Assembly (NCBI GenBank): GCA_965216785.1 | Contig: OZ244197.1 | Span: 2,336,001 to 2,400,000, forward strand | Direction of reading: 5' to 3' | Length of the DNA: 64,000 nucleotides | From: Thermodesulfobacteriota bacterium | Lineage (GTDB): Bacteria > Desulfobacterota_D > UBA1144 > Nemesobacterales > UBA2774 | Translations under genes and position numbers: made by a program | The notes under the pieces: model-generated | Database searches by the model: none | What the model was told of the DNA's origin: nothing | Seen by the model: the letters and a program-made list of their open reading frames with translations, nothing else | Part shown: in pieces, positions 26,446-40,038 of the stretch | Numbering within the stretch: position 1 is the first letter of the stretch | Layout: the number at the start of each line of letters is the position of its first letter

Positions 26446-28026
26446 TTATGTCTCCAGGTTTTTTTGTATCAGGCGTTTGAATATTTTAGTTAATATGTTT
26501 CCCTTGGGCTCTGTCGTATCCACTATAATTAGATTCTCATCACTGACCTCATTGGGGTCTTCAAACTCGCTGGTGAACCTCTCAAGTATTTCGAGCCTGC
26601 CGTCTGAAATAGACCCTCCGAGAATCTCTCTCTGCTGGAGTCTATCGCGTACGACTTCCATAGGCGCTGTTGTCTGAATAAAGAATACCGGAGTGTTGAG
26701 CTCTGAAGCGGAGCTAAGTACGAGCTCTCTCCATTTAGCTTTTGAAAAGCTCGCGTCAACCACCGCGCACTCTCCCGTATTTATTATCCCCATTCCCCTC
26801 GCAGCCAATTCTTCATATGTATCCAGGGTAATCTCTTTTGAATAAATACCACTTTCATATTCCTCAAAATGTCTTTCTCCGGGTTTAGCGCCAGCCTTTT
26901 CTTTCCTTAGAGCATCTGATGATATAACCTGGCAAGACAGCTGCTTTGAAAGTGAGCTTGCGAGGGTGGACTTTCCCGTTCCGATAGAGCCGCAAATAAC
27001 AAGAAGCGTTGGTTTAGAGCCCAGGAGCGCGTAGCGTAAGGCGAGCTTAAAATACTTTTGCGCCCGCACAAGCGCCTCCTCTCTAATTTCGCTCGGCACC
27101 TCGGGCTCAAATGCCTTTATGCTCTCCACCTTGCCCCTCACATATGCCCTGTAGCATTTATAGAAATCAAGCACACGGTAAAGCCCTCTGTCCTCCATCA
27201 ACTCTGAGATGCGGGAGATGAAATAACGTGAATAATCGTAATAACCGTTAAGGTCAAGGTCCATTGCCAAAAACCCCGTATCAGAGGCGATATCTATAAA
27301 TCTAAACCTCTCGTTAAACTCAATGCAGTCGTATATGTTAATTCCCCCGGGGCTTATGTTAATGTGCTCCAGGTGCAGATCGCCGTGGCAGTTCTTGATA
27401 AAGCCGCCCTCCGCCCTTTCATGGAAAAGCTGTGAGCGGGTCTTAAAGAAACCCCAGTTGTATTCCTTCACTGCGTTAAATGAAGACTCAGAGATTGTTT
27501 TCCCTATGAACTTTCTGCTCTGAGAAGTGCTCTCGTCAACGCTATACTTAATGCTCGCAGGCTCTCCGTACGCGGAGATTTCCGGGTCCGGACGCTCGTT
27601 TTTGTAAAACTCCGCAAGTTTTTGTGCTATGCCGTCAAAATTTTTTTTTGAGGCTTTACCCTCTTTGAGCAAGTTTTTAAGAAAATATTTCTCGGGAAGC
27701 TCTTTCATCAAAAGGGCGTACTCTATGGTCTTCTCCCCTGGGCCGAATACATATTCCCCATCCTTAAGCGAAATCTCAAGAACTTGTAGGTATATGCCGC
27801 TTGTAAGCCTTCTGTTTAAGACAAGCTCTTTGTCTAAGAAATACTTTCGCTTCTCAAGCGTTGTAAAATCGAGGAACCCGAAATCTACCGGCTTTTTAAC
27901 TTTGTAAACGTAGGGGCTTGCGATAAAAACATCCGAGGCGTGCGTCTGCACGTGAGCGACTCTCTCTGGGTGATGAGGATATGAAGAAGTCTTTAATAGA
28001 AAATCCGTAAGTGCCCTGCGGTTCAA
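26446..28026 (-). CDS. Phosphotransferase-fold / P-loop kinase fusion (Rv2004c-like)
   Basis: YKVKKPV.FGFLDF, CHGDLH, DCIEFN; Walker A GSIGTGKST. Confidence 0.9.
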   Translation of the reverse strand: MNRRALTDFLLKTSSYPHHPERVAHVQTHASDVFIASPYVYKVKKPVDFGFLDFTTLEKRKYFLDKELVLNRRLTSGIYLQVLEISLKDGEYVFGPGEKTIEYALLMKELPEKYFLKNLLKEGKASKKNFDGIAQKLAEFYKNERPDPEISAYGEPASIKYSVDESTSQSRKFIGKTISESSFNAVKEYNWGFFKTRSQLFHERAEGGFIKNCHGDLHLEHINISPGGINIYDCIEFNERFRFIDIASDTGFLAMDLDLNGYYDYSRYFISRISELMEDRGLYRVLDFYKCYRAYVRGKVESIKAFEPEVPSEIREEALVRAQKYFKLALRYALLGSKPTLLVICGSIGTGKSTLASSLSKQLSCQVISSDALRKEKAGAKPGERHFEEYESGIYSKEITLDTYEELAARGMGIINTGECAVVDASFSKAKWRELVLSSASELNTPVFFIQTTAPMEVVRDRLQQREILGGSISDGRLEILERFTSEFEDPNEVSDENLIIVDTTEPKGNILTKIFKRLIQKNLET

Positions 28027-28053
28027 AAGGTCCTCATTCCGCGTATATTTTTA

Positions 28054-28950
28054 TCAAGGGTTAATGGCAAAAACGCTGCATGTAGCGTTATGTATTACCT
28101 TCTCCGTTACGCTTCCCAATAACAGCCTGTTGATGCCTGTCCTTCCATGAGTGTGAATCACAATAAGGTCAGTCCCCTTTTCCTCAGCGTAGGTAGATAT
28201 AGTCGAAGCCACGCTAAGGCCGTGAACGACCTCTGTTTTAATTTTAATATCCTTTGGACCTTTGTATTGTTTCGCGATCCGCTCCACTTCTTTTTCAAGC
28301 TCGGATATAGACTGTCTTATTACAATGTTTAGCGCCCCCGCGGGTACGTCCTGTGCGTACATGTCGAGCCTTAGCGCGTATATTACAGTTATACGTCCGG
28401 ACGTGGCGTTTGCGATGTCCATTGCGCTATGCAGCGCTGTTTTGCATTTATGCGACAAATCGTAGGGTACTAAAATATTCTTGTAAGAAACTTTCCTGCG
28501 GCCCGCTTTAGCTTTCGTAATCAGTACCGGTTTCTCAGTTACCTTGACTACTTTTGAGGTTTCGCTCCCCAGTATCAGGCTCCCGATAAAGCCGTGACCG
28601 TGCTTTCCCATGACAATGAGGTCAGCGTTTCTTTTACGCGCGAACTCTCTAAGTTTCTCAGACGGGTTTCCCCTTAGCAGAACACCTTCGAATTTTATAT
28701 CCGATTTCGCAAGGTTCTTCTCAATCTTAGCGAATTTCTTTGTGAAATCGTCTTCGACTTTTGTCATCCAGTCCTTAAATTCAACCTCGTCTCCGCTCAA
28801 GGACTCAAAAAGCATAACGGTGGGCAAGGGAATGACGTGTGCCCCAATAATGTTGGCGCCGGTTAATTCTGCCATATATTTCGCGTTTAATAGAGCGTTA
28901 TCAGCTTCTTTTGAGCCGTCTGTAGCCCAGAGTATCTTCTTAATTTTCAT
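28054..28950 (-). CDS. Tandem-domain universal stress protein
   Basis: KILWATDGS; two DLIV..HG...GS motifs. Confidence 0.93.
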   Translation of the reverse strand: MKIKKILWATDGSKEADNALLNAKYMAELTGANIIGAHVIPLPTVMLFESLSGDEVEFKDWMTKVEDDFTKKFAKIEKNLAKSDIKFEGVLLRGNPSEKLREFARKRNADLIVMGKHGHGFIGSLILGSETSKVVKVTEKPVLITKAKAGRRKVSYKNILVPYDLSHKCKTALHSAMDIANATSGRITVIYALRLDMYAQDVPAGALNIVIRQSISELEKEVERIAKQYKGPKDIKIKTEVVHGLSVASTISTYAEEKGTDLIVIHTHGRTGINRLLLGSVTEKVIHNATCSVFAINP

Positions 28951-29055
28951 TTAACACCTCGTCTGTAATTTGTCCAAGAAATCCCGACAATCGCCATCCG
29001 CCGGCGGACTTTTCATACTATTCTAACATAAACCCCCGATTATATAATCTCGAGT

Positions 29056-29505
29056 CTATATGACCTTGGACTTACTGCTCATTGCCATTGCCAGGTTAAC
29101 GACCTCCGTTGCCACGACCACTATCAGATCATCGACAGATACTATGCCCGTAAGCTTTCCGCCGCTCGTAATGGGCAGCCTTCTCACCGAATGCTCCTGC
29201 AGGATCCTGATTATATCAAACAGATCTGTATCCTCATCAACGCTCACAGGGTCTTTGGTCATAATATCCTCTACAGTGACTTCAGTGGGGTTTATTCTCT
29301 CGGCTATCACTGAAACCACTAAATCCCTGTCTGTAATGATCCCGATGGGTTTAGAGTCTTTGTCTGTAACGACAAGAGCCCCGATATCCTCGTTCCTCAT
29401 TAAATACGCGGCTTCCGAAACGGAATCATAAGAGGAAATAGTGATAACGTTTCTGTGTATTAATTCCTTAAAAGTACTTGAATAATCCTTTGACTTAGCG
29501 TGCAT
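29056..29505 (-). CDS. Stand-alone CBS-pair protein (Hrp1/Rv2626c-like)
   Basis: IGALVV, GIITDRDL, VRRLP, GIVSVDD. Confidence 0.9.
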   Translation of the reverse strand: MHAKSKDYSSTFKELIHRNVITISSYDSVSEAAYLMRNEDIGALVVTDKDSKPIGIITDRDLVVSVIAERINPTEVTVEDIMTKDPVSVDEDTDLFDIIRILQEHSVRRLPITSGGKLTGIVSVDDLIVVVATEVVNLAMAMSSKSKVI

Positions 29506-29546
29506 AACGTACTCCTGCTCGATTTTTTTACTATATATTCTGTAGT

Positions 29547-29562
29547 TGCAACTTAAGTGCCT
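29547..29562 (-). promoter_or_regulatory. Sigma54 promoter for the CBS-USP operon
   Basis: Minus strand AGGCACTTAAGTTGCA = GG-N10-GC. Confidence 0.8.
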
Positions 29563-29634
29563 TCTGGAAACGTTAAAAAATCTTCAATAAAATCAGCTTA
29601 ATCTGATATTCAGATTCAAAATGACAGTGTCTAT

Positions 29635-29650
29635 TGTCAGATTATAAGAC
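29635..29650. promoter_or_regulatory. Enhancer-like site, copy 2 (TGTCAGATTATAAGAC)
   Basis: Exact 16-bp reverse complement of 9228-9243; lies between two divergent sigma54 motifs. Confidence 0.78.
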
Positions 29651-29705
29651 GCTGGTGTGTCTGATGTAGCTATCGAATTTCCTTTTATTCTTAGATTAAA
29701 CGGCT

Positions 29706-29721
29706 TGGCATTTATTTTGCA
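29706..29721 (+). promoter_or_regulatory. Sigma54 promoter for the 80-aa ORF
   Basis: TGGCATTTATTTTGCA = GG-N10-GC. Confidence 0.78.
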
Positions 29722-29780
29722 CTTAAATATAGTAGTCAAAGGGATGTAGTATTGAATATAGGATATTTTAGGAGGCTTCT

Positions 29781-30023
29781 ATGTCTGACTATAACACTTT
29801 GTACCTTATAGACTCTACATATAATTCAGAGCGTGACGCGACAGAGGTAACTTTCGGTTACCTTGAGAAAGAAAAGGAGATAGTTGGCAGGAATATGAAA
29901 GTAAGGGTAATTGTGAGCGTTCCGGGCGGAAAAGATGACATGACCTCCGTAATTAAAGAGGGGTTAAAGAAGGCAAAACACGTACTGAAAACGGCCTCTA
30001 AAGCATCTTATGAGGAAGATTAA
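29781..30023 (+). CDS. Small hypothetical protein (80 aa)
   Basis: AGGAGG RBS, upstream sigma54 motif, fills an intergenic gap. Confidence 0.75.
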   Translation: MSDYNTLYLIDSTYNSERDATEVTFGYLEKEKEIVGRNMKVRVIVSVPGGKDDMTSVIKEGLKKAKHVLKTASKASYEED

Positions 30024-30066
30024 CTATAGGTAGTAACCACTTGTAATAACAATATATTATATGCTT

Positions 30067-31068
30067 TTAAGCTCCCGTAATTATCTCGTCCAGCTCATTT
30101 AACTTTGATATCTCCCCAATTGCTACGAGCGTGTCACCCGCTTGTATCATGCTCTTTGAGCCCGGGTTAAACTCCATCGTGCCGTCTGTTTTTCTTATAG
30201 CCAGTATTATTATTCCCAGGTCACGGCCGATTCCGGATTCAGCAAGTGTGCATCCGCTTAATTTTGATTTCTCAGAGACTGTTACTTCTTCAATTTGAAG
30301 CTCCAAATTCCCTGTTTTAGTGGCGAACTCCAGAAAATCCACAACGGCGGGCTTGAGCACGGTATTTGCGATCCGTATTCCCCCGGTATGATAAGGTGAT
30401 ACGACCCTGTCTGCCCCGGCGCGCAGTATCTTGCGCTCGGCGCTATCGTCACTCGCCCTCGTTACTATGAACAGCTCGGCATTAAGCTCTCTTGCGCTTA
30501 GCACTACAAACAGGTTCTCCGCGTCCGTTGGGAGTACGGCTACCAAACCCTTAGCCCTTTCGATTCCGGCATTCCTGAGCGCTTCCTCGCTGCTCGCGTC
30601 GCCCTCGACAATTAAAAACTCATCCCTGTCAATTTGAGAGACAGGCTCTTTTTCTATTACAAGGGTCTCAATTCCTTTCGCTTTAAACTCTTTAGCAACG
30701 GTCCTTCCCAGCCTGCCGAATCCGCAGATTATGTAATGGGACTTTATCTCGCTTATTCTTTTCTCCAATCTAGACCTCCCTATATACTCCTGAAGCTCTC
30801 CTTCGAGTAAAAGTTTTGCTTCCGTGCTAAGCAGATACAGAATTATACCTACTCCCACTATTAGCAGAACCATGGTGAATATCTGCCCCTCTGAGCTCAA
30901 AGGGTACACTTCACCGTAACCTACGGTAGTAAGGGTGATTACGGTCATGTAGAGGGCGTCAAGAGGGGGCCAGCCCTCAATAACCATATAACCTATCGTA
31001 CCCGCGGCTATTATTAACACTATTAAAACGAGCGCAGAAAATAGCTTGTTCCCAAGTTTAAGAATCAT
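30067..31068 (-). CDS. Potassium channel with RCK (TrkA-N/C) domains
   Basis: TTVGYG filter, ICGFGRLG, C-terminal TrkA-C. Confidence 0.95.
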   Translation of the reverse strand: MILKLGNKLFSALVLIVLIIAAGTIGYMVIEGWPPLDALYMTVITLTTVGYGEVYPLSSEGQIFTMVLLIVGVGIILYLLSTEAKLLLEGELQEYIGRSRLEKRISEIKSHYIICGFGRLGRTVAKEFKAKGIETLVIEKEPVSQIDRDEFLIVEGDASSEEALRNAGIERAKGLVAVLPTDAENLFVVLSARELNAELFIVTRASDDSAERKILRAGADRVVSPYHTGGIRIANTVLKPAVVDFLEFATKTGNLELQIEEVTVSEKSKLSGCTLAESGIGRDLGIIILAIRKTDGTMEFNPGSKSMIQAGDTLVAIGEISKLNELDEIITGA

Positions 31069-31202
31069 AAAAAACTCCGCGGGCTTGCGCCGCCGGGTTT
31101 AATTGTCGGTCTGAGTGTTCTCGAGCGATGTTTGAGTGTTGCAATCAAAATTTAAACCGCGTCTATGCACAATGCTTTTTAAATTTTTAGTGCCCGATAA
31201 TG

Positions 31203-32072
31203 TTAAGACGGTCTTACGGCAATGACCGCGCAAGACGCTTCCTGTACGACCCTTTCGGTGACGCTCCCTATGAACTCTTCCCTCCTGAACTCACCGCCGC
31301 CGTAAGTATTCAATACTACAAGGTCTATATCCTTTTCCTGTATGAATTTAAGTATTCCCAAAAGAGCGTTCTTAGCTGTATTGACTACAGTAGTAACTTT
31401 ATCCGCCATATCGGCTTCGTTTATCTGCTGTGTAAGCTTGCTATACGCGTTACCTCTGAGCCTCTCAACTACTTCGGGCGGGAATTTCCTGTCGCCGATC
31501 TCAACAATATTCAGGCTGAATATCTCGGCGCCGCTGAGCTCTGAAAAATCAAGGGCAAAGCGCAGGTCCGTGGAATTTATGTTATATAGGTCCGTAGGTA
31601 CGAGAAGACGTTTTATATTAATACTTTCCACATCCTTTTTCGCAATGAGCACTGGTACGGGTGATCGTCTGAGCACCTTTAGAGCAGTTGCGCCCAATAT
31701 GGCTTTGTCGTCCGCTCTGCCTTTCCCGATTACTATTAGGTCCGCTTTAACTTCCTCAGCGGTCTTTATAATCTCTGAGTGGGGGGCGCCCTGGGATATT
31801 CTCGAGCTGAATGATATTCCTTTTTCGTTTGCCACGTCGGCAATCCCGCTCAGCCTGTCGCTTTCTTTCGATTCGGTCTCCTTAATCCACTCCGCCAGCA
31901 TATCGAGCTCTTGTGAAGGAAATTCCTCTAGCACGGGCACTTCATAGTAGTCGGGTATGACGTACAGTCCCACTATCTCAGCGTTTAAGCTCTTTGCAAA
32001 ATATTCAGCGTATTGAAGGGCAAAACCGGCATCCTCAGAATTGTCACAAGCCCAAAGTATTTTATCTATCAA
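31203..32072 (-). CDS. Tandem-domain universal stress protein
   Basis: KILWACD, DLIVIG, IGSVTERVV. Confidence 0.9.
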   Translation of the reverse strand: MIDKILWACDNSEDAGFALQYAEYFAKSLNAEIVGLYVIPDYYEVPVLEEFPSQELDMLAEWIKETESKESDRLSGIADVANEKGISFSSRISQGAPHSEIIKTAEEVKADLIVIGKGRADDKAILGATALKVLRRSPVPVLIAKKDVESINIKRLLVPTDLYNINSTDLRFALDFSELSGAEIFSLNIVEIGDRKFPPEVVERLRGNAYSKLTQQINEADMADKVTTVVNTAKNALLGILKFIQEKDIDLVVLNTYGGGEFRREEFIGSVTERVVQEASCAVIAVRPS

Positions 32073-32226
32073 CAGTAGTCTCCTTAAGTTAATTCCACCA
32101 TTTGGTGGAAATATTCTAATCTATCAGATGAAATTATAAATACTTGGTTGCTCTGAATTGGCAAACTCGTGAATTTCATGCGTATATTAACCATCTGTGT
32201 AAATTCTCAGAAGTAATAGTCCTGAT

Positions 32227-33129
32227 TTATTTTACTGCCAACACTGAGCAGGGCGATTCCTGTATGATCTTTTCAGTTTCACTTCCGTATATGAGTCTGC
32301 TTACCCCTTTGCGACCGTGAGTTTTAACGACCGTCAAATCGATCTGGTTCTTTTCGGCAAATTCCCTGAGCACGTAACTGGGGCTGATGCCGTGAAGGAC
32401 CTGGCTCTTAATCTCCACGCCCGGCTCTTTAGCTTCAGGCGTATCTTTTGAACCCGATTCGGCTGCCACTATACGGGCAAGCTCGGTCTTGGAGCGCTCA
32501 ATAAGCTCGTCTACCAGACCGGGCGGTATCTCATAAGCCGTGCCGTCAAGCCAGAACACATAAACCGCGATAACTTCAGCGCCCACTTTATCCGCAAGGG
32601 CAAGCGCTTCTGGGAGCGCTGAAACCGAGATGTCTGATATATCCACGGGAACCATTATCTTTTTTATATCCGTACTGTATGTATCGCCTTTACTCCTTAC
32701 GGCCAATACGGGAGCATTTATTTGCCTCAATACCTTGACAGTGTTGCTGCCGATAAGCGTGCTGCTTAGAAACCCCTGTCCCTTCTTACCCATCACAATA
32801 AGATCCGCCCCTTCTATGTCGGCGGTTTCTATTATCCCCTCCACGGTGCCGTCCCTGATTATCGTAGAGCTAAAGGGTATACCTTTTTCCTTGAACTTCT
32901 CCGATACCTCGTCAAACCTTTGCTTAAAGCTATTCTCTGTTTTTTCAGCGATTTCTAAAATCGCGTCTTCGTATACCGGCAGAAGAGATGTCAGAGGGAA
33001 ATGAATCTCACTTACGTACAGAGCCGTTACTGAAGCCTTAAAAACATCTGCCAGGTATAGTGCAGAATCAAGCGCTTTGTCCGACTCTTCAGAGCCGTCT
33101 GTAGCCAGGAGTATCTTCTTTATATCCAT
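32227..33129 (-). CDS. Tandem-domain universal stress protein
   Basis: MDIKKILLATDGS (start moved to 33129), DLIVMG, GSETEKII..SPCSVL. Confidence 0.92.
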   Translation of the reverse strand: MDIKKILLATDGSEESDKALDSALYLADVFKASVTALYVSEIHFPLTSLLPVYEDAILEIAEKTENSFKQRFDEVSEKFKEKGIPFSSTIIRDGTVEGIIETADIEGADLIVMGKKGQGFLSSTLIGSNTVKVLRQINAPVLAVRSKGDTYSTDIKKIMVPVDISDISVSALPEALALADKVGAEVIAVYVFWLDGTAYEIPPGLVDELIERSKTELARIVAAESGSKDTPEAKEPGVEIKSQVLHGISPSYVLREFAEKNQIDLTVVKTHGRKGVSRLIYGSETEKIIQESPCSVLAVK

Positions 33130-33134
33130 ATCTA

Positions 33135-33998
33135 TCAAGGGCTGAGCGTTATTACGGGACAAGGTGCTTCCTGAATCACCTTTTCTGTCGTGCTCCCTAT
33201 AAACTCTTCTCTTATTTTCGTTCCGCCGTACGTCATCACAACTATCAGGTCTATGTCGTTTTTCTCCGCGAACTCTATTATACCACGCCATCCGCTTCCT
33301 GAGGCTATGGAATGGAGCTCAGTGTTCTCAGGTATTTTTGTAGCCCCTATGGTTTCCACAAGGTCTCTAAGCGCAAAGCCCTTTAACTGCTCCTGGATTT
33401 CCAGCGGTACGCTAAGGTTCCCGAGCTCTACTACATTGAGCACGTGCAGCTCTCCCCCGAAATCCTCTGCCATCCCGAGCGCGTATTCGTAGTTACCGGA
33501 CAGCCCGTGCATAACGGCAATCGGAGCGAGAATCTTCTTGAACTCCCCCTTTGATTTCGTCTCTAAGGCCGTAAGCACCGGTAGTCGAGTGCCTCTTATT
33601 ACCTTCAGGGCAGTTCCGCCTAGTACGAACCTCTCCAAAATCCTGCCTCGCCCAAGAGATATCAAATCCGCGTTTTCTTTCTCCGCGTACTCTATAATCT
33701 CCTCATGGGGGATTCCCTTAACTACATCAAAACCGAACTTGATTCCCTTTCTCTCTAACTCTTTTGCCAGGCTTTGCATAGACTCCCGCTCCTTGTTCGC
33801 GAGAGTATTATCCATCCACTCAAGAAAACTGTCCTTTTCCTTTTGTGTGAAGTTATTGACGACTGAATAGTATATGGGCAGTACGGACAAACCCATCAAG
33901 GCCGCGTCATACTTTAACGACAGTTTCTCGGCAAGTGCGAGCGCCTCAAGGGAATCGTTTGAACCATCCGTTGCCCAGATTATTTTATTTAAAGTCAT
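33135..33998 (-). CDS. Tandem-domain universal stress protein
   Basis: KIIWATDGS, IGSTTEKVI..APCPV; close paralog of 31203-32072 (shared TYGG...REEFIGS). Confidence 0.92.
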   Translation of the reverse strand: MTLNKIIWATDGSNDSLEALALAEKLSLKYDAALMGLSVLPIYYSVVNNFTQKEKDSFLEWMDNTLANKERESMQSLAKELERKGIKFGFDVVKGIPHEEIIEYAEKENADLISLGRGRILERFVLGGTALKVIRGTRLPVLTALETKSKGEFKKILAPIAVMHGLSGNYEYALGMAEDFGGELHVLNVVELGNLSVPLEIQEQLKGFALRDLVETIGATKIPENTELHSIASGSGWRGIIEFAEKNDIDLIVVMTYGGTKIREEFIGSTTEKVIQEAPCPVITLSP

Positions 33999-34117
33999 AT
34001 GGCTGCCCTCCGTTAACTATTTTATTCCTGCCCCGGCATCGCTGTGAAGCGCTCGCCTCTGTCCCCATTCCCGCTTTATTAATAACCGGATCGTGCTTTG
34101 CACTCCCGGCTGCCCCA

Positions 34118-34573
34118 TTAACTAACCTCTACCTTAATGTCTTTGGGCTTAGACTCCGCTGCCTTTGGCATATGAATCTCCAGAACGCCGTCTTTAAATG
34201 TGGCTTTAACCTTCTTCTCGTTTACCTTGGCTGGCAGATTGAGCACCCTCATAAAGCTCCCGAAAGACCTCTCGGAATAGTAGTAATCTTCCTCCTTGGT
34301 CTCTTCTTCCTTTTTCATCTCACCCTTAATCGTGAGCATGTTGTCTGAAATAGAAATATTCAGATTTTCCTTATCTACCCCGGGAACCTCGGCCTTAACA
34401 ACGATCTCGTTCTTGTTGTCGTACATATCTACAGCGGGAGATGACTCTCCGAACTGAGCAAACGCTCTTAGCGAGGGGAACCTTCTTGCCATACCGCCCG
34501 ATATTGTCTCATCGAACAGATCGTGAAAAAACCTTTCCATATTTTCTCTTGGTGTCCATCTTTTAAGTGCCAT
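34118..34573 (-). CDS. Hsp20 / alpha-crystallin small heat shock protein
   Basis: PAVDMY, AEVPGV, ERSFGSF.R...LP, A.FKDGVLEI..PK. Confidence 0.96.
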   Translation of the reverse strand: MALKRWTPRENMERFFHDLFDETISGGMARRFPSLRAFAQFGESSPAVDMYDNKNEIVVKAEVPGVDKENLNISISDNMLTIKGEMKKEEETKEEDYYYSERSFGSFMRVLNLPAKVNEKKVKATFKDGVLEIHMPKAAESKPKDIKVEVS

Positions 34574-34614
34574 AATACCTACCTCCTTAAAATTGGTTTT
34601 ATATTAATATTTAT

Positions 34615-34630
34615 TACAAGTAACGTGCCA
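34615..34630 (-). promoter_or_regulatory. Sigma54 promoter for the hsp20-USP operon
   Basis: Minus strand TGGCACGTTACTTGTA (perfect -24 box, GT variant at -12). Confidence 0.72.
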
Positions 34631-34700
34631 TATGCATAGCGTTCATATACACTGCTATAATAGATTCCTAATAGAATTATTACGCTCTACACATGTCGTG

Positions 34701-34717
34701 TGTCAGATAATAAGACA
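34701..34717. promoter_or_regulatory. Enhancer-like site, copy 3 (TGTCAGATAATAAGACA)
   Basis: One mismatch in 17 bp to the reverse complement of copy 1. Confidence 0.75.
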
Positions 34718-34815
34718 GTGCAGGATCGTAAAATTTATTCAATTTCAAAGAAAAGCCTTGAAAAGGATCTATTTTTATTCTATGAAATGTATGTAATGGG
34801 GGTTTCGAAAAGACT

Positions 34816-35844
34816 ATGAAAGCCATGCTGCTAAAGCGTGTATCGGATCTTAGATCTGAAAGTAACCCGCTTGATCTCTCAGACGTGCCCGTGCCCGAGC
34901 CGGGGGAAGGGGAGATACTTATTCGCGTAAAAGCTTCGGGCGTTTGCCACACTGAGCTCGACGAGATTGAAGGCAGGACCCCTCCGCCTCACTACCCGGT
35001 AATCCCCGGGCACCAGGTTGTGGGTACGGTTGAAGAGACGGGGCCAAACGCGGTTGCTCACGCTTTTGGAGACAGGGTTGGGGTAGCGTGGATTTATTCC
35101 TCGTGCGGTGTGTGCAGCTACTGCCGTGAGGGGAACAACAATCTATGCCCCGAGTTTATGGCCACAGGCCGAGACGCGGACGGTGGTTATGCGGAGTATC
35201 TGAAGGTACATGAAGAATACGCCTATAAGATTCCGGATACACTCGGCGACTCAGAGGCGGCCCCGCTCCTATGCGCTGGAGCTGTAGGGTACCGCGCTCT
35301 CAGGCTCACCGGTATTGCGGACGGGCAATCCCTTGGGCTTACGGGGTTTGGAGCGTCTGGTCATCTTGTGCTCAAGCTTGTAAAGAACATGTTCCCGGCA
35401 ACACCCGTATACGTGTTCGCGAGGAGCGGCACCGAGAGGGAGTTTGCAATTGAGCTTGGGGCAGATTGGGCAGGTGACGCCGAGGAATACTCACCCGAGA
35501 AGCTGGACGCAGTTATCGACACAACTCCTGTATGGAAGCCGGTAGTTGAAGCGCTCAAACAGATAAAGCCCGGCGGTAGAATGGTGATAAACGCGATAAG
35601 AAAAGAGGATGTAGATAAAGATTATCTCTTGAACCTAAGTTACCACGAGCATATGTGGATGGAAAAGGAGATTAAGTCCGTAGCGAACGTAAGCCCAAGA
35701 GACGTAAGAGAGTTCCTAAAGCTCGCGGGAGAAATACCCATAAGGTCCAAGGTGGAGGAATATGCACTTGAAGATGCAAATAGGGCGCTCACGGAGCTAA
35801 AAAAAGGTAATATAAAGGGTGCTAAGGTATTAAAACTGGTATAA
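34816..35844 (+). CDS. Zinc-dependent alcohol dehydrogenase family
   Basis: GVCHT, PGHQVVG, CGVCSYC..G..NLC, APLLCAG, GFGASG. Confidence 0.95.
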   Translation: MKAMLLKRVSDLRSESNPLDLSDVPVPEPGEGEILIRVKASGVCHTELDEIEGRTPPPHYPVIPGHQVVGTVEETGPNAVAHAFGDRVGVAWIYSSCGVCSYCREGNNNLCPEFMATGRDADGGYAEYLKVHEEYAYKIPDTLGDSEAAPLLCAGAVGYRALRLTGIADGQSLGLTGFGASGHLVLKLVKNMFPATPVYVFARSGTEREFAIELGADWAGDAEEYSPEKLDAVIDTTPVWKPVVEALKQIKPGGRMVINAIRKEDVDKDYLLNLSYHEHMWMEKEIKSVANVSPRDVREFLKLAGEIPIRSKVEEYALEDANRALTELKKGNIKGAKVLKLV

Positions 35845-35879
35845 TATCGTGCATTAAGGGTTCCGAAGGGGCTATTTAC

Positions 35880-37430
35880 TTGGAAAAAACAGAATATTAC
35901 GAGCTTGGGGATGTAATTGAGAAAAAAGACCTGAGCTCGCGTATATCTAACGAATTTACAGCTATTTTTGAGAAAAGCGTCAAACAAAAAAAGCGCTATT
36001 TAGACACTTTTGACTTCAGATTGTGCGGCGACGGTGTTTATCTGCTGTGCGATAGCAACTCTTTTATCCTCCACAACTCTCATTTCAATAAACCTATAGC
36101 TGAGCTACCCTCGGAAGGGAAAAAGGACCCTCACTTCTGGTGGGAGCTTCCGAGCTGCTCGTTAAAAAACGAATTAAAAAAGCGTATAGACGTCAGGGCG
36201 CTTTTGCCGATTATAGAGGTCGAGAAAACATCAACCCCCGTACGCATACTTAACGAGGATGAAAAGACCGTTATAATCCTGACGATAGAGGAAATAAAAG
36301 CGGGTGGCGATAGCGGCGGCAAAATTACTCACATATGCCTTAAACCCCTAAGGGGATACGGGAAAGAGCTTTCAGAGTTTAAAAGCTATCTTACTGGGCT
36401 CAGACTCAAGGAGTCAGAGGGCGATTACCTAAAGACACTGCTGATATCAATCGGTAAAAACCCAAAAGACTTTTCTTCAAAGCTGAAAATAAGCCTTACG
36501 CCCGAGCTCTCATCCCTGGAAGCTCTAAAGATTATAATGACTACGCTTCTGCGCACGATTAAGTTAAACGAGGAAGGTATCTTAAAGGATATAGATATAG
36601 AGTTCCTCCATGATTTCAGGGTGGCCGTCAGAAGGACGCGCTCTGCGCTCTCTCAAATAAAAGGCGTATTCCCCGAGCAGGATACAGAGCATTTTAAAGA
36701 AAGGTTCTCAAGACTCGGCAAGGCGACAAACCTTCTCCGAGACCTAGATATATATCTTCTAGACAAAGACCGCTACAGGGCCATGCTTCCGGAAGAGCTG
36801 AGTCCGGGGCTGGAGCAAATGTTCTCGATATTTGTAGAGCAGAGAAAAAAGGCCCACAGAGATATTGTTAAGTTTATTAAATCCAAAGAGTATAAAGATG
36901 TCATAGAGTCCTGGGACAAATTCCTAAGCGAAACAGGGGACGTTTCCTCGACCCCCAATTCCGCAGTTCCGGTCACCGAGCTTGCGGGCCGTATAATAAA
37001 AAAGAAGTACAAGAGGATAGTAAGAGACGGCTCACGCATAACCGATGCGACCCCAGACTCTGAGCTTCATAAACTCAGGATAGAATGTAAAAAGCTTAGG
37101 TACATGATCGAGTTCTTCTCTTCCCTTTATCCGGCAGAGGAAATCAAGTCACTGGTAAAACATCTGAAAATCCTCCAGGACAACCTGGGAGAGTTTAACG
37201 ATCTTTCGGTCCAGCGCGAAAGCCTAAAGGCGTTTGTCGACAAGCTTGACCCTTCGGACGAAAAACACAGGGAATCCATAGTCTCTTCAGGAGGGCTGAT
37301 CTCCGTTCTTTATGAGCGGCAAAGGGAGGTTCGCTCCGAGTTCACGGAAAAATTTAACGAGTTTCAGGACAAAGAGACAAAATCCATATTCAAAAAACTA
37401 TTTCATGTTAAGCCGGAGCGGGCGTCTTGA
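35880..37430 (+). CDS. CHAD-domain protein with degenerate N-terminal CYTH-like region
   Basis: YLDTFDFRL; LHDFRVAVRR.RS, RDLD, LHKLRIECKKLRY, LQDNLG.FND. Confidence 0.9.
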   Translation: MEKTEYYELGDVIEKKDLSSRISNEFTAIFEKSVKQKKRYLDTFDFRLCGDGVYLLCDSNSFILHNSHFNKPIAELPSEGKKDPHFWWELPSCSLKNELKKRIDVRALLPIIEVEKTSTPVRILNEDEKTVIILTIEEIKAGGDSGGKITHICLKPLRGYGKELSEFKSYLTGLRLKESEGDYLKTLLISIGKNPKDFSSKLKISLTPELSSLEALKIIMTTLLRTIKLNEEGILKDIDIEFLHDFRVAVRRTRSALSQIKGVFPEQDTEHFKERFSRLGKATNLLRDLDIYLLDKDRYRAMLPEELSPGLEQMFSIFVEQRKKAHRDIVKFIKSKEYKDVIESWDKFLSETGDVSSTPNSAVPVTELAGRIIKKKYKRIVRDGSRITDATPDSELHKLRIECKKLRYMIEFFSSLYPAEEIKSLVKHLKILQDNLGEFNDLSVQRESLKAFVDKLDPSDEKHRESIVSSGGLISVLYERQREVRSEFTEKFNEFQDKETKSIFKKLFHVKPERAS

Positions 37431-38170
37431 AAACCCTGGCCATGTACAGCATGAAAGGAGGGGTGGGTAAAACGGCAGCCGCCGTAAACCTCTCTTACAT
37501 CGCGGCGCAGGAAGGAGCCCGTACTCTCCTTTGCGACCTCGACCCTCAAGGCGCGTCATCCTATTACTTCCGCATTCGGGCGTCCCGTAACTTCAACTCT
37601 TCTAAATTCATCAAAGGCGGAAGGAATATAGATAGGAACATAAAGGGCACAGACTACCCGAACCTCGACCTCCTTCCATCAAAGCTCTCTTATAGAAATC
37701 TAGACATCGCGCTTGATTCCCTGAAGAATTCCAAAAGCCGCCTACGCAAGATATTCAAACTCATAAAGCACGAGTACGACTATCTGTTCCTTGACTGTCC
37801 TCCCGGCATCTCGCTCGTTTCGGAGAACGTGTTCGAGGCCTCAAGCCTTATTGTGGTACCGCTCATCCCCACCACTCTGTCCGTACTTACCTACGAGAAG
37901 CTGCGGAAATTTCTCAAGAATAACGACATAGACCGCGGTAAGCTCTTTACGTTTTTCTCTATGGTCGAAAAGCGAAAGAGCCTCCATCAGGAGATGATAG
38001 AAAAAATAAGACAGGAAGAAAAGAACATCCTAATCAGCCAAATACCATACCGCTCCGAGATCGAGAGGATGGGGATCGACAGAGCGCCTGTCGCGGCCAC
38101 TCACCCAAACTCCGCCTCTACGGAGGCTTACACTGATCTCTGGGAAGAGATAAAGAATCATATACCTTAA
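37427..38170 (+). CDS. ParA/MinD-family ATPase
   Basis: Deviant Walker A KGGVGKT, DLDPQG, DCPP; overlaps the CHAD stop. Confidence 0.93.
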   Translation: MKTLAMYSMKGGVGKTAAAVNLSYIAAQEGARTLLCDLDPQGASSYYFRIRASRNFNSSKFIKGGRNIDRNIKGTDYPNLDLLPSKLSYRNLDIALDSLKNSKSRLRKIFKLIKHEYDYLFLDCPPGISLVSENVFEASSLIVVPLIPTTLSVLTYEKLRKFLKNNDIDRGKLFTFFSMVEKRKSLHQEMIEKIRQEEKNILISQIPYRSEIERMGIDRAPVAATHPNSASTEAYTDLWEEIKNHIP

Positions 38171-38182
38171 ACACATCTCCAA

Positions 38183-38644
38183 ATGAATATTGAGATCGAA
38201 AGAAAATACCTAGTCAAGCACCCCCCGGGCCTTGAGAACTTTTCATCAGAGGAGATATTGCAGGGCTATTTACTCATTACCGATGAAAAAGAGATACGCA
38301 TACGGAAAAAGGGTAATAAATATTATCAAGCCGTAAAAGTGGGCCAGGGCCTTAAGCGTCAGGAGATTGAAAGAGAGATCGGGATGTTCCAGTTCGAGGA
38401 GCATTGGCCCGAGACAGAGGGCAGGCGCATCGAGAAAAGGCGCTATATGATTTACTACGACGCCGTGTTGATTGAGCTAGACGTTTACTCAGGTGAATTA
38501 ACCGGACTCATCACTGCCGAGGTCGAATTTAAGAGCGAAGAAGACAGCATGCTATTCGAGCCGCCCCCGTGGTTCGGCCCCGAAGTCACGCACGACGACC
38601 GCTACAAGAATAAAAACCTGGCCGTGTTCGGAATGCCTGGTTGA
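38183..38644 (+). CDS. CYTH-domain (triphosphate tunnel) protein
   Basis: EIERKY, QGYL, RIR, IEKRR, AEVEF, W.G.EVT.D.RY.N. Confidence 0.93.
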   Translation: MNIEIERKYLVKHPPGLENFSSEEILQGYLLITDEKEIRIRKKGNKYYQAVKVGQGLKRQEIEREIGMFQFEEHWPETEGRRIEKRRYMIYYDAVLIELDVYSGELTGLITAEVEFKSEEDSMLFEPPPWFGPEVTHDDRYKNKNLAVFGMPG

Positions 38645-38666
38645 GTTGGTTATAGAGTGTTTGTAT

Positions 38667-38700
38667 TGTCATTCTGAACTTGATTCAGAATCTCATCTTT
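38667..38700 (+). repeat. GTC-tagged palindromic repeat (REP-like)
   Basis: TGTCATTCTGAACTTGATTCAGAATCTCATCTTT; 32/34 match to reverse complement of 56860-56893. Confidence 0.85.
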
Positions 38701-38727
38701 ATTCTTAACAATAAACTAAAACCTTTA

Positions 38728-40038
38728 CTATCCCTTCTCATAAGGATCATCCATCTCGGGGTGCCATAGCTTAAAGTGGTCCTTATGCATTTCTGTGTAA
38801 GCGCCCTCTTCGTAATACTTATCATAAAAATCAAGATCAAGATGGTGCGCCTGAAACACAAGTCTCGTGAACATCGGGTCCAGGAATGCCGGGAAGCGTC
38901 CGTAGTTTTCATATACATAGGTGCAAAAATCCTTTACAATCTCGATCCTCACCTCGCTCGGGTGGTACTCGTCCGCCAGTACTCCTTCTGGCTCTTTGTA
39001 AGGGTAGGGGTTGTCCTCCTCCCAAAAGCGCCCACGTTCACGAAGGAATTTATCAACCGCTTCTCTCATGTCAGACACGTATGGCGGGCAAAGGGCTTCG
39101 AAAACACCGTCTCTTCCCACAGGTACAGGTGGCTTAGAGCTCCTAATGGTCTTCTCAGGGTTAGTGAACGTAAACCCGAGCCCTTTATACTCTGGGTTCA
39201 CACCGAGCGCGTAGTGAGGCAGAAGCCCCGTAAACGCCCATCCTCCCAGGCCCAGAGTCTGGAGAGCGAGGTTCATGTTCTGGCATATAAACGCCTGCTC
39301 TACGTTAAGGGTTGTCAGCACCCTAAGCTCTAGATCAAATAGCGAAAGCTCCACCTCTTTTCTGATGTATCCCTTCTCGATCCACTTGTCCAGCCCGCAA
39401 GAGCGCCCTCCGTTAAGCTCATCAACTATGTTAAACCCGTACTTTGAGCCGAAATAAATAAACAGCAGCACCATATACTCAACCGTAGTGTTCGTAACGG
39501 GGACAAAAAAAGTAGTCCCGGGCTTATTGCAATTCCAGGCGTTAAAATCAAAGAGTCCCGGCTCGCCTTTCGGAAGATCGGCCCTCCCGTTCTCTAGCTT
39601 GAGCAGGTTCATACGGAATAGCTCAAGTACTCTGTTCAGAACTTCCTGCTCTGATTTGCCGGCGAATATAGATGTCTCTCCCGCCTGGGGCATCAGGTCG
39701 TGGAGCTTTACCATATACACCCCGTTGTCGTTCGTATAGAAAAGCTCTGTCGAGTGTGAGTTGCAAGAGCACGGCCAGCTTCTGCCTGTCCACTGAAATA
39801 GCCAGGATATCCCGGTCCTTGGCAGATCGCCCAGCGAAAGCCCGGTCATCCCGGTGCCAGCCCAAATGAGATACGCCTCCTCAAGCTCTGTAAGCGGTAC
39901 GGGTTCGTGCTCGGACTTATGCTTGAGTGTTCCCTCGGCTATCTCCATCCCGAGCCCGAAACGCCGGGAGCGCCTCGTGAATATAGCGTCCATAAAACTG
40001 TAGTTAAGCGCTTTCTCTAGACCTTCTGGGATTTTCAA
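38728..40038 (-). CDS. Hypothetical protein, nitroreductase-like
   Basis: AIFTRRSRRF, R.WP...N, ICQNM.LALQ.LGLGGW resemble FMN-binding nitroreductase motifs. Confidence 0.7.
   Translation of the reverse strand: MKIPEGLEKALNYSFMDAIFTRRSRRFGLGMEIAEGTLKHKSEHEPVPLTELEEAYLIWAGTGMTGLSLGDLPRTGISWLFQWTGRSWPCSCNSHSTELFYTNDNGVYMVKLHDLMPQAGETSIFAGKSEQEVLNRVLELFRMNLLKLENGRADLPKGEPGLFDFNAWNCNKPGTTFFVPVTNTTVEYMVLLFIYFGSKYGFNIVDELNGGRSCGLDKWIEKGYIRKEVELSLFDLELRVLTTLNVEQAFICQNMNLALQTLGLGGWAFTGLLPHYALGVNPEYKGLGFTFTNPEKTIRSSKPPVPVGRDGVFEALCPPYVSDMREAVDKFLRERGRFWEEDNPYPYKEPEGVLADEYHPSEVRIEIVKDFCTYVYENYGRFPAFLDPMFTRLVFQAHHLDLDFYDKYYEEGAYTEMHKDHFKLWHPEMDDPYEKG

Follow-up and report, generated by a model that had tools for sequence, protein, structure and literature searches.

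A long CHAD protein and an orphan ParA-like ATPase form a conserved gene pair, a probable organizer of polyphosphate granules

In a 64,000-nucleotide window (the whole stretch of DNA analysed) of a Thermodesulfobacteriota genome, we identified a gene cluster whose conserved core is a pair, a pseudo-TTM+CHAD protein followed by an orphan ParA-like ATPase, which recurs across phyla and likely organizes polyphosphate (polyP) granules. That the two co-inherited proteins work as one machine positioning these granules is our tentative reading, a little short of an even chance. Passages of a 2025 review list the ATP dependence of granule placement as unknown (PMC13052382), and those of a 2026 study call the molecular basis of placement unclear and phosin function unknown (PMC13081873). 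Our literature search found no proposal of an ATPase–phosin pair organizing polyP granules; it did turn up a ppk1-parA-CHAD synteny reported for Acidithiobacillus. Whether motor or switch, such a pair would provide the first protein partner for a phosin and a new cargo class for the ParA/MinD family. The cluster comprises the following features, in window coordinates.

34816..35844, + strand, Zn-dependent alcohol dehydrogenase (TIGR02822, over cut-off), a local passenger
35880..37430, + strand, long CHAD protein, 516 aa, PF05235 at aa 220–449; core member and proposed granule adaptor
35880..36479, + strand, pseudo-TTM N-terminal domain of the CHAD protein (aa 1–200), from Foldseek
36480..37430, + strand, CHAD domain, polyP-contact residues mapped onto Chlorobium tepidum CHAD (CtCHAD)
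37427..38170, + strand, orphan ParA-like ATPase (AAA_31/ParA-like), 247 aa, of a distinct subfamily; core member
38183..38644, + strand, CYTH/TTM enzyme, 153 aa; accessory member

An earlier note on this DNA had described a CHAD gene overlapping an orphan parA gene, with a CYTH gene 12 bp on and no parB nearby. The open reading frames confirm the arrangement (4 bp shared between CHAD and ATPase, then a 12-bp gap), and the only ParB match in the genome lies at 1.081 Mb of contig C1, 1.29 Mb away, beside a canonical Soj and with one parS match near that pair. The note had also read the operon as divergent from hsp20; it is the alcohol dehydrogenase gene, not the CHAD gene, that diverges from hsp20 (242-bp gap), and this gene, unnamed at the time, fills the first 1,029 bases of 34816..38644. 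Neither the dehydrogenase nor hsp20 belongs to the module; only 2 of the 80 related loci have the former within 6 kb. A short-read contig, possibly from the source sample, spans 34040–38800 with 0 differences, and a strain from a separate study spans 35600–38646 without gaps. A promoter and terminator scan of the locus gave chance-level results, and NCBIfam has no name for the CHAD protein, the ATPase (all matches under cut-off) or the CYTH protein.

The pairing holds up across phyla, as the earlier note had suggested checking: a CHAD gene lies within 6 kb of the ATPase gene in 75 of the 80 closest loci (12 named phyla) and in 74 immediately precedes it in the same orientation, a linkage that exceeds chance, and the two genes overlap by 4 bp in 28 of 62 intact pairs. 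Three unlinked Methylococcales carry the long CHAD gene elsewhere in the genome, beside sixA. Counted in reverse over three phylum samples (seed genomes included), the ATPase gene adjoins the long CHAD gene in 9 of 11, 6 of 7 and 7 of 8 genomes. Within the phylum of the source genome, both genes occur in the same 36 of 120 genomes sampled, and CHAD, ATPase and CYTH are all present in 29 of 30 loci read (our own included), the other meeting a contig end. In one genus of this phylum (g26), CHAD occurs in 33 of 36 genomes but belongs to a different CYTH–CHAD protein (4 loci read) carrying ExExK, the N-terminal metal-binding motif of TTM/CYTH enzymes; protein comparison found this ATPase in 0 of 36 genomes and profiles found it in 0 of 5, and the idea that just any CHAD type will do as the partner is ruled out. 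The ATPase is thus supported as a dedicated orphan tied to one CHAD type across phyla.

Enzyme neighbours are variable among the 80 loci (ppk1 in 12, ppk2 in 8, ppx in 5, sixA-like in 12, phoU in 4), and none is constant. An obligate pair for the whole ATPase family is ruled out: among sampled genomes with a family member, the long CHAD gene is missing from 59 of 65 in Pseudomonadota and likewise from 7 of 14 in Actinomycetota. At 36 such Pseudomonadota loci, read over about 6 kb on each side, ppk2 is next door in 4 and profiles found no polyP gene in 32. Five genomes show the reverse, four with a long CHAD gene and no ATPase match (G141, G284, G365, G878) and one with a second copy that has no ATPase nearby (G230).

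The CHAD protein matches PF05235 (E 5e-60, 203.7 bits) and C. tepidum CHAD (3E0S/6QV7/6QVA; E 1.6e-67, 37–38% identity), and its model scores pLDDT 93.5 and pTM 0.91. Alignment with CtCHAD residues H253, R256, R260, R296, R418, Y419 and K441, taken from the mutants in passages of PMC6537752, shows that the polyP contacts of the crystallized Chlorobium domain are all kept: H244, R247, R251, R287, R407 and Y408 each occur in 63 of 63 rows, and K430 in 61 of 63. Granule localization in cells is reported, in literature passages, for other CHAD proteins. The N-terminal domain had no Pfam match; its model is predicted to adopt the TTM barrel, with Foldseek matches to thiamine triphosphatase, YgiF and SaTTM at E 1e-4 to 1e-3. 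ExExK is absent from 62 of 63 rows, an ExExK-like string occurring in the first 40 aa of the remaining one; the invariant residues are R106, K129 and G159, and no conserved residue precedes position 42.

The CYTH protein is likely an inorganic tripolyphosphatase, given its alignment with Nitrosomonas europaea NE1496 (PDB 3TYP/2FBL; E 4.5e-38, ~50–51% identity), where E4-x-E6-x-K8, Y29 and K52 coincide with the ExExK motif and the Tyr/Lys dyad. The earlier note counted it as an operon member, and the gene is constant in its own phylum; core membership is ruled out by its presence in 18 (profile) or 19 (tblastn) of the 80 loci, and it is accessory. The genome (92% complete) has two ppk2 genes, and ppk1 was not found in it.

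By its motifs and predicted fold the ATPase belongs to the ParA/MinD family (SIMIBI ParA clade). The deviant Walker A motif KGGVGKT is invariant in 63 rows (K10-G-G-V-G-K15-T16, with K10 the signature lysine), as are D37, D39, Q41 and D123 (DxD sensor motif, Walker B aspartate), and the model (pLDDT 85.6) reaches TM 0.80–0.84 to Soj/ParA at 21–26% identity. Placing Bacillus subtilis R189 and R218 on the ATPase via the genome's own Soj and their 29-residue spacing shows the R189-type arginine kept as R183 (72 of 94 linked rows have R or K there), while the R218 position is E211 (69 of the 89 CHAD-linked rows have D or E) and aromatic residues predominate at the R215-type position. Net charge is about +9 vs about −7 for four Soj controls, with R90, K184 and R219 as family-specific invariant basic residues. 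The chain stops 4 residues past the last core helix (230–243), and a C-terminal amphipathic membrane-targeting helix of the MinD/FlhG type is absent. Nor does the protein fit ParABS, since no parB accompanies it and only one of the two basic DNA-binding residues is present. D76 and R49, located in an insert that other ParA/MinD proteins use for partner binding, occur in 92 of 94 and 94 of 94 CHAD-linked rows vs 3 of 47 and 9 of 47 unlinked ones, a suggestive covariation with CHAD linkage that rests on 3 independent pairs and is not significant (p 0.25–0.5).

Phylogeny, also proposed at the outset as a check, places the ATPase subfamily on its own long branch apart from Soj (support 100). Strongly supported splits of the ParA tree reappear in the CHAD tree in 27 of 27 and 25 of 26 cases, and one of them mixes three named phyla; linkage alone would suffice for such agreement. 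In separate trees of the N-terminal domain and of the CHAD domain, 18 and 24 of 26 such splits reappear, respectively, which gives no pointer to the former domain as the ATPase contact. Multimer prediction passed the mark for the CHAD protein with the ATPase, at 0.58 vs 0.00 for the best control, with no interface given, at least 95% of contacts shared between runs and partner pLDDT of at least 84. Of 157 solved pairs, 116 reach the mark, as do 2 of 215 mismatched ones; passes at or below 0.60 comprise just 18 solved pairs and both mismatches, so that a pass in this low range lends weak support.

ParA–CYTH fusions of 412–414 aa number at least 9 among the 120 matches listed, and this fusion is repeated in two parts of the tree; other ATPase fusions involve a HAD phosphatase, a solute-binding domain and, once, the whole CHAD protein. 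CHAD–ParA fusions were rejected as Rosetta-stone proof: of 19 among the 120 long matches listed, 12 lose CHAD homology 36–130 positions early and run on in out-of-frame-looking sequence, as expected from a frameshift where genes overlap, and 6 further ones in normal order are discounted because stop loss is possible. Only P0146, with reverse order and a clean linker (2 cluster members, 3 sources), is counted as a ParA–CHAD fusion.

For granule positioning, we envisage that the CHAD protein would coat the polyP granule, that the ATPase would dock on the granule-bound CHAD protein and that its ATP cycle would set granule position and sharing at division. As expected from its family, the ATPase would form an ATP-dependent dimer with hydrolysis triggered by the partner, while the CYTH enzyme, where present, may clear tripolyphosphate at the granule. 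Among the weakest steps are the nucleoid as a possible track, with one canonical DNA-binding arginine kept, the other acidic and the whole protein basic, and the dead TTM domain as the putative ATPase-contacting part. A fuller version, in which this would be the first ATP-driven polyP-granule positioning, the dead TTM domain the ATPase activator and the invariant basic residues the readers of a polyanion (DNA via a new surface, or polyP) in place of the textbook ParA DNA-binding face, seems rather unlikely. The earlier note's proposal of CHAD as adaptor and ParA as positioning ATPase stands in part. A dedicated orphan, a single CHAD type, retained polyP residues, agreeing trees and the weak complex pass speak for it; the acidic R218 position, the many family members without a CHAD partner and the lack of a detected ppk1 speak against positioning, as do the fusions, since an ATPase joined to CYTH, HAD phosphatase, solute-binding or CHAD domains fits poorly with one that must leave its cargo. 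According to passages of PMC13081873, polyP spacing in S. elongatus needs no ParA-family ATPase, which also counts against positioning.

The ATPase may instead be a granule-resident switch or assembly factor that binds CHAD or polyP and ATP-dependently loads or gates CYTH, PPK and PPX, setting granule size, number or turnover without moving granules along DNA, a possible reading that we hold in some doubt. It accommodates the acidic R218 position and the missing membrane helix, the basic charge with its three invariant residues, the recurrent CYTH fusion, the clean fusion P0146 and ppk2 directly upstream at 4 loci lacking the long CHAD gene; ParA-clade proteins also serve as plain switches, according to passages of bioRxiv 10.64898/2026.10.19.760177. 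The retained R183, a fold nearest to Soj/ParA and the variability of every enzyme neighbour across the 80 loci argue the other way.

That the ATPase serves phosphate or polyP physiology without touching CHAD, co-regulation and joint transfer keeping the genes together, strikes us as improbable. Such a separation would suit the many family members that persist without a long CHAD protein, the five genomes with an unaccompanied long CHAD gene and a complex score at a level where, unless a pair is likely a priori, a pass is wrong more often than it is right. It is at odds with the translational coupling seen in many phyla, with the joint occurrence of the two genes where they are unlinked and with the restriction to one CHAD type. 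A DNA-partition or chromosome ParA travelling by chance with a polyP cassette is very improbable, for although the Soj-like fold, relatives on plasmids and a patchy spread with cross-phylum clades indicating transfer would agree with one, no parB is in the vicinity, canonical parAB lies elsewhere in the genome, the branch is long and apart from Soj, relatives occur in only 11 of 72,556 plasmid records and the constant neighbour is CHAD.

Among the closest known systems is McdA–McdB, which positions carboxysomes, together with PpfA–TlpT. Like McdA, the protein is an orphan ParA-type ATPase with the signature lysine intact and an adjoining gene for a protein able to bind a cytoplasmic body (passages of PMC11407121 and PMC13052382), and the constant neighbouring partner gene of McdAB-type systems is found in 75 of the 80 closest loci, though not in distant family members. 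Unlike the small McdB, the partner here has 516 aa in two domains and its gene lies upstream; a polymer coated with protein would be the cargo, nucleoid binding is doubtful and the ATPase sequence resembles McdA weakly (E ~1e-5). Chromosomal ParA/Soj of ParABS offers the closest solved folds (TM ~0.8, 21–26% identity) and the R189-type arginine, but our ATPase departs from it in the lack of parB/parS, the acidic R218 position, the net basic charge and the separate branch. AlgP of Pseudomonas aeruginosa, in literature passages the one named factor for even polyP-granule spacing, is by contrast a DNA tether similar to histone H1 and has no ATPase. The Acidithiobacillus folD-ppk1-parA-CHAD cluster, compared by description, has the published synteny (PMC10892726, PMC6416229), whereas its CHAD is described as CYTH-CHAD cyclase-like and its parA as a partition protein, and no granule role is proposed.

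The pair names genes to delete or purify in cultured N. europaea (L078), Tritonibacter (L109), Donghicola (L087), Paracoccus aestuarii (L114) and Desulfobacter latus (L088), and both the CHAD domain and the CYTH enzyme already have solved structures. NeuTTM (NE1496), ~50% identical to our CYTH protein, is the third gene of the CHAD–ParA–CYTH run in N. europaea, although literature passages give it no granule or ATPase link. The phosins PptA and YgiF share the CHAD domain and its polyP-contact residues; the YgiF type differs in that its CYTH domain is active, with ExExK, and that no such ATPase occurs in the kin genus examined. CtCHAD, the C. tepidum phosin, is of the same long type (522 aa) with CHAD domain and polyP-contact residues, its crystallized piece omitting the N-terminal pseudo-TTM domain, and in Chlorobiaceae the ATPase gene follows that of a 522-aa relative (E 3.5e-137 to CtCHAD).

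The CHAD gene is followed by genes for a ParA-like ATPase and a CYTH protein within a run of four forward-strand genes:

34118-34573, reverse strand: hsp20, oriented away from the four forward-strand genes
34816-35844, forward strand: Zn alcohol dehydrogenase (ADH), 342 aa
35880-37430, forward strand: CHAD protein, 516 aa
37427-38170, forward strand: ParA-like ATPase, 247 aa, overlapping the CHAD gene by 4 bp
38183-38644, forward strand: CYTH protein, 153 aa, starting 12 bp after the ATPase gene

The overlap and spacing are as an earlier note had read them; that note also called the operon divergent from hsp20, which holds for strand and direction, but the ADH gene sits between hsp20 and CHAD. 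The host genome, a single 3.12-Mb contig (92% complete) whose closest named relatives are Candidatus Dadabacteria, has its only parB at 1.08 Mb beside a canonical Soj, and the window ATPase is therefore an orphan, as had been proposed. Public contigs confirm the sequence of the locus, and a second strain shows matching gene order. No ppk1 match was found in this 92% complete genome, which carries two ppk2, one ppx-like, one sixA-like and one phoU gene away from the locus.

The CHAD–ParA module is real and conserved. Among the first 600 GTDB pattern matches, 586 were confirmed relatives of the ATPase, and the best 80 of these loci, a set biased to close relatives, come from 12 named phyla, with 7 further records unassigned. 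In 75 of these 80 a CHAD gene is found no more than 6 kb from the ATPase; 74 of these CHAD genes sit immediately upstream in the same orientation and 1 is convergent, so the synteny flagged for checking does extend across phyla. Of the other five, two begin at a contig end and three belong to Methylococcales, whose genomes encode elsewhere, adjoining sixA, a long CHAD (the type pairing a pseudo-TTM N-terminal domain with a polyP-binding CHAD domain). Further neighbours among the best 80 are CYTH (18–19 loci), ppk1 (12), sixA-like genes (12, in a cluster that may include Nudix), ppk2 (8), ppx (5), phoU (4) and ADH (2), with ppk1, ppk2 or ppx at 17/80. Within the host's own phylum, long CHAD and ATPase occur in the identical 36 of 120 genomes, and a search for the ATPase in genus g26 found none, CHAD being present in 33 of its 36 genomes (of the ExExK CYTH–CHAD type in four loci read, with ppk1 adjoining in three); the ATPase is therefore tied to one CHAD type.

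Counted from the CHAD side in even samples of three phyla, with the seed genome included in each, the ATPase adjoins the long CHAD in 9/11 genomes (of 201 sampled), 6/7 (of 301, Pseudomonadota) and 7/8 (of 251, Actinomycetota). The converse tie fails, since the ATPase profile matches 10, 65 and 14 genomes in these samples, leaving 1, 59 and 7 without a long CHAD; some other CHAD gene is present in 24 of 33 such genomes. At 36 loci of these unlinked ATPases, read for about 6 kb on each side, profiles detected no polyP genes in 32 and a double-domain ppk2 directly upstream in 4, and Pfam on 80 of 153 neighbour proteins returned unrelated genes. Pseudomonadota loci L238–L241, where the ATPase lies right behind the double-domain ppk2 and a long CHAD is missing, come from genomes that encode a short CHAD next to a sixA-like gene elsewhere.

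A FastTree phylogeny of 171 rows, four of them Soj, addressed the ParA ancestry raised in the earlier note and places the ATPase family on its own single long branch, separate from Soj (support 100). The window ATPase falls in a 68-row group (support 93) consisting solely of CHAD-adjacent members and fusions, and unlinked ATPases appear at about seven places, one a clade of 22; the module is therefore either a subclade property or an ancestral state with several losses. Stand-alone CHAD occurs in 10/10 genomes tested from the 22-member clade, beside ppk2 in 4. Genomes of this clade also encode a much diverged 514–562-aa CYTH-like and CHAD-like protein, 7–25 kb from the ATPase in three (loci L304, L305 and L306; genomes G415, G343 and G387), which is a possible replacement partner.

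Over its last 310 residues the CHAD protein matches the polyP-bound structure of C. tepidum CHAD (E 1.6e-67, 37–38% identity), in which, according to PMC6537752, mutating the contact residues weakens polyP binding. These residues map to H244, R247, R251, R287, R407 and Y408, each kept in 63/63 aligned rows, and K430, kept in 61/63. The N-terminal 200 residues gave no match in Pfam, and a confident structure model shows a triphosphate-tunnel barrel; the ExExK motif is absent in 62/63 rows, with R106, K129 and G159 invariant, suggesting a pseudo-enzyme (dead TTM) domain. CtCHAD, at 522 aa, also belongs to the long type, although it was crystallised as a piece without this domain; in Chlorobiaceae, the ATPase gene comes directly after the gene for a relative of the same length (522 aa).

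By every motif the ATPase is a member of the ParA clade, and it is neither a ParABS ParA nor MinD. All catalytic motifs are present, the fold is Soj-like and no membrane helix was found. Residues R189 and R218, through which Bacillus subtilis Soj is described as binding DNA, were mapped via the host's own Soj (basic residues 29 apart). The first corresponds to R183 (R or K in 72/94 linked rows, those with an adjacent long CHAD) and the second to E211 (D or E in 69/89 and 74/94 in two row sets). In Soj, placing an acidic residue at the R218 position eliminates DNA binding. Half of the canonical surface for contacting DNA is lost in the ATPase. The family is nevertheless basic (mean net charge +9 over 90 linked rows vs -7 over four Soj rows), R90, K184 and R219 are invariant, and the ATPase likely binds a polyanion, DNA or polyP.

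Across 63 paired rows, 27/27 strong ATPase splits were recovered in the CHAD tree in one build and 25/26 in a second (one conflict), with a patristic r of 0.81. One group of 16 rows in this agreement mixes deltaproteobacteria, Alpha- and Betaproteobacteria and Gemmatimonadota. This shows joint transfer, and such agreement is expected from linkage alone. D76, F48 and R49 are the columns that most clearly tell linked and unlinked ATPases apart, and they lie in an insert that passages of a ParA survey (bioRxiv 10.64898/2026.10.19.760177) describe as partner-binding in ParA and MinD; R49 and D76 are kept in the three in-trans cases, and their association with linkage comprises only three independent pairs (p 0.25–0.5). 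The multimer prediction suggested in the earlier note, run in one set-up with two ATPase copies and CHAD residues 3–510 without ATP, scored 0.58 against 0.00 for the best of three controls, which weakly supports contact under a calibration only rough for this set-up. It passes a mark reached by 116/157 solved and 2/215 mismatched pairs, but lies in the weak range up to 0.60, where the pairs reaching the mark are just 18 of the solved ones and the two mismatches. At least 95% of contacts are shared between runs, and partner pLDDT is at least 84.

At least nine relatives are ATPase–CYTH fusions of 412–414 aa, and at least ten further, longer ATPase fusions carry Pfam CYTH. Most listed CHAD–ATPase fusions look like frameshifts and were set aside; protein cluster P0146 looks real. 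The P0152 cluster (762–763 aa) has a frameshift-like linker and may be a real genomic frameshift, because it recurs in three members from different sources. Clusters P0125, P0171 and P0228 (related locus L055:5992-7677) join the ATPase to a sucrose-phosphatase-type HAD domain (28 members), a solute-binding family 3 domain (16) and a tail that lacks annotation but contains a CYTH-like string (15).

By analogy, the ATPase would most likely work like McdA with the phosin as adaptor, the arrangement envisaged in the earlier note. Given the DNA-binding surface and the fusions, we only tentatively propose that it positions polyP granules, and consider a granule-bound switch just a little less likely. 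The pair as a granule system is absent from the full-text literature searched, which mostly excludes subscription journals; parA–ppk1–CHAD synteny is already published, as folD–ppk1–parA–CHAD in Acidithiobacillus, presented without a granule-system proposal in passages of PMC10892726 and PMC6416229. The main text of the 2026 ParA survey names neither CHAD nor CYTH. Passages of PMC13052382, PMC11894788 and PMC11407121 either name AlgP as the sole spacing factor without settling whether ATP is used, or are silent on polyP, and those of PMC13081873 indicate that polyP spacing in S. elongatus does not need McdAB.

The window CYTH protein shares 51% identity with Nitrosomonas europaea NE1496, described in part of PMC3440374 as a specific tripolyphosphatase; both genes stand third in equivalent CHAD–ParA–CYTH runs.

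Immediately after the CYTH stop codon, strain run X5 from another study has 1,261 different letters at 38646-38735. A 436-aa reverse-strand ORF (38728-40038), downstream of a Fur-family gene, converges on the operon and has no match in Pfam or NCBIfam. Between hsp20 and a usp gene, a two-part intergenic repeat (34019-34116, about 50 + 42 bp) has 64 blastn matches in the genome, often tandem with a period of 47–50 bp, and is presumably REP/BIME-like. The reverse-strand stress cluster at 26446-34573 comprises hsp20, four tandem-domain Usp-like genes, one CBS-like gene, one TrkA-like channel gene and a gene for a 526-aa protein that ends in an AAA_33 domain, three genes being labelled by domain scan and the remainder from reading the sequence.
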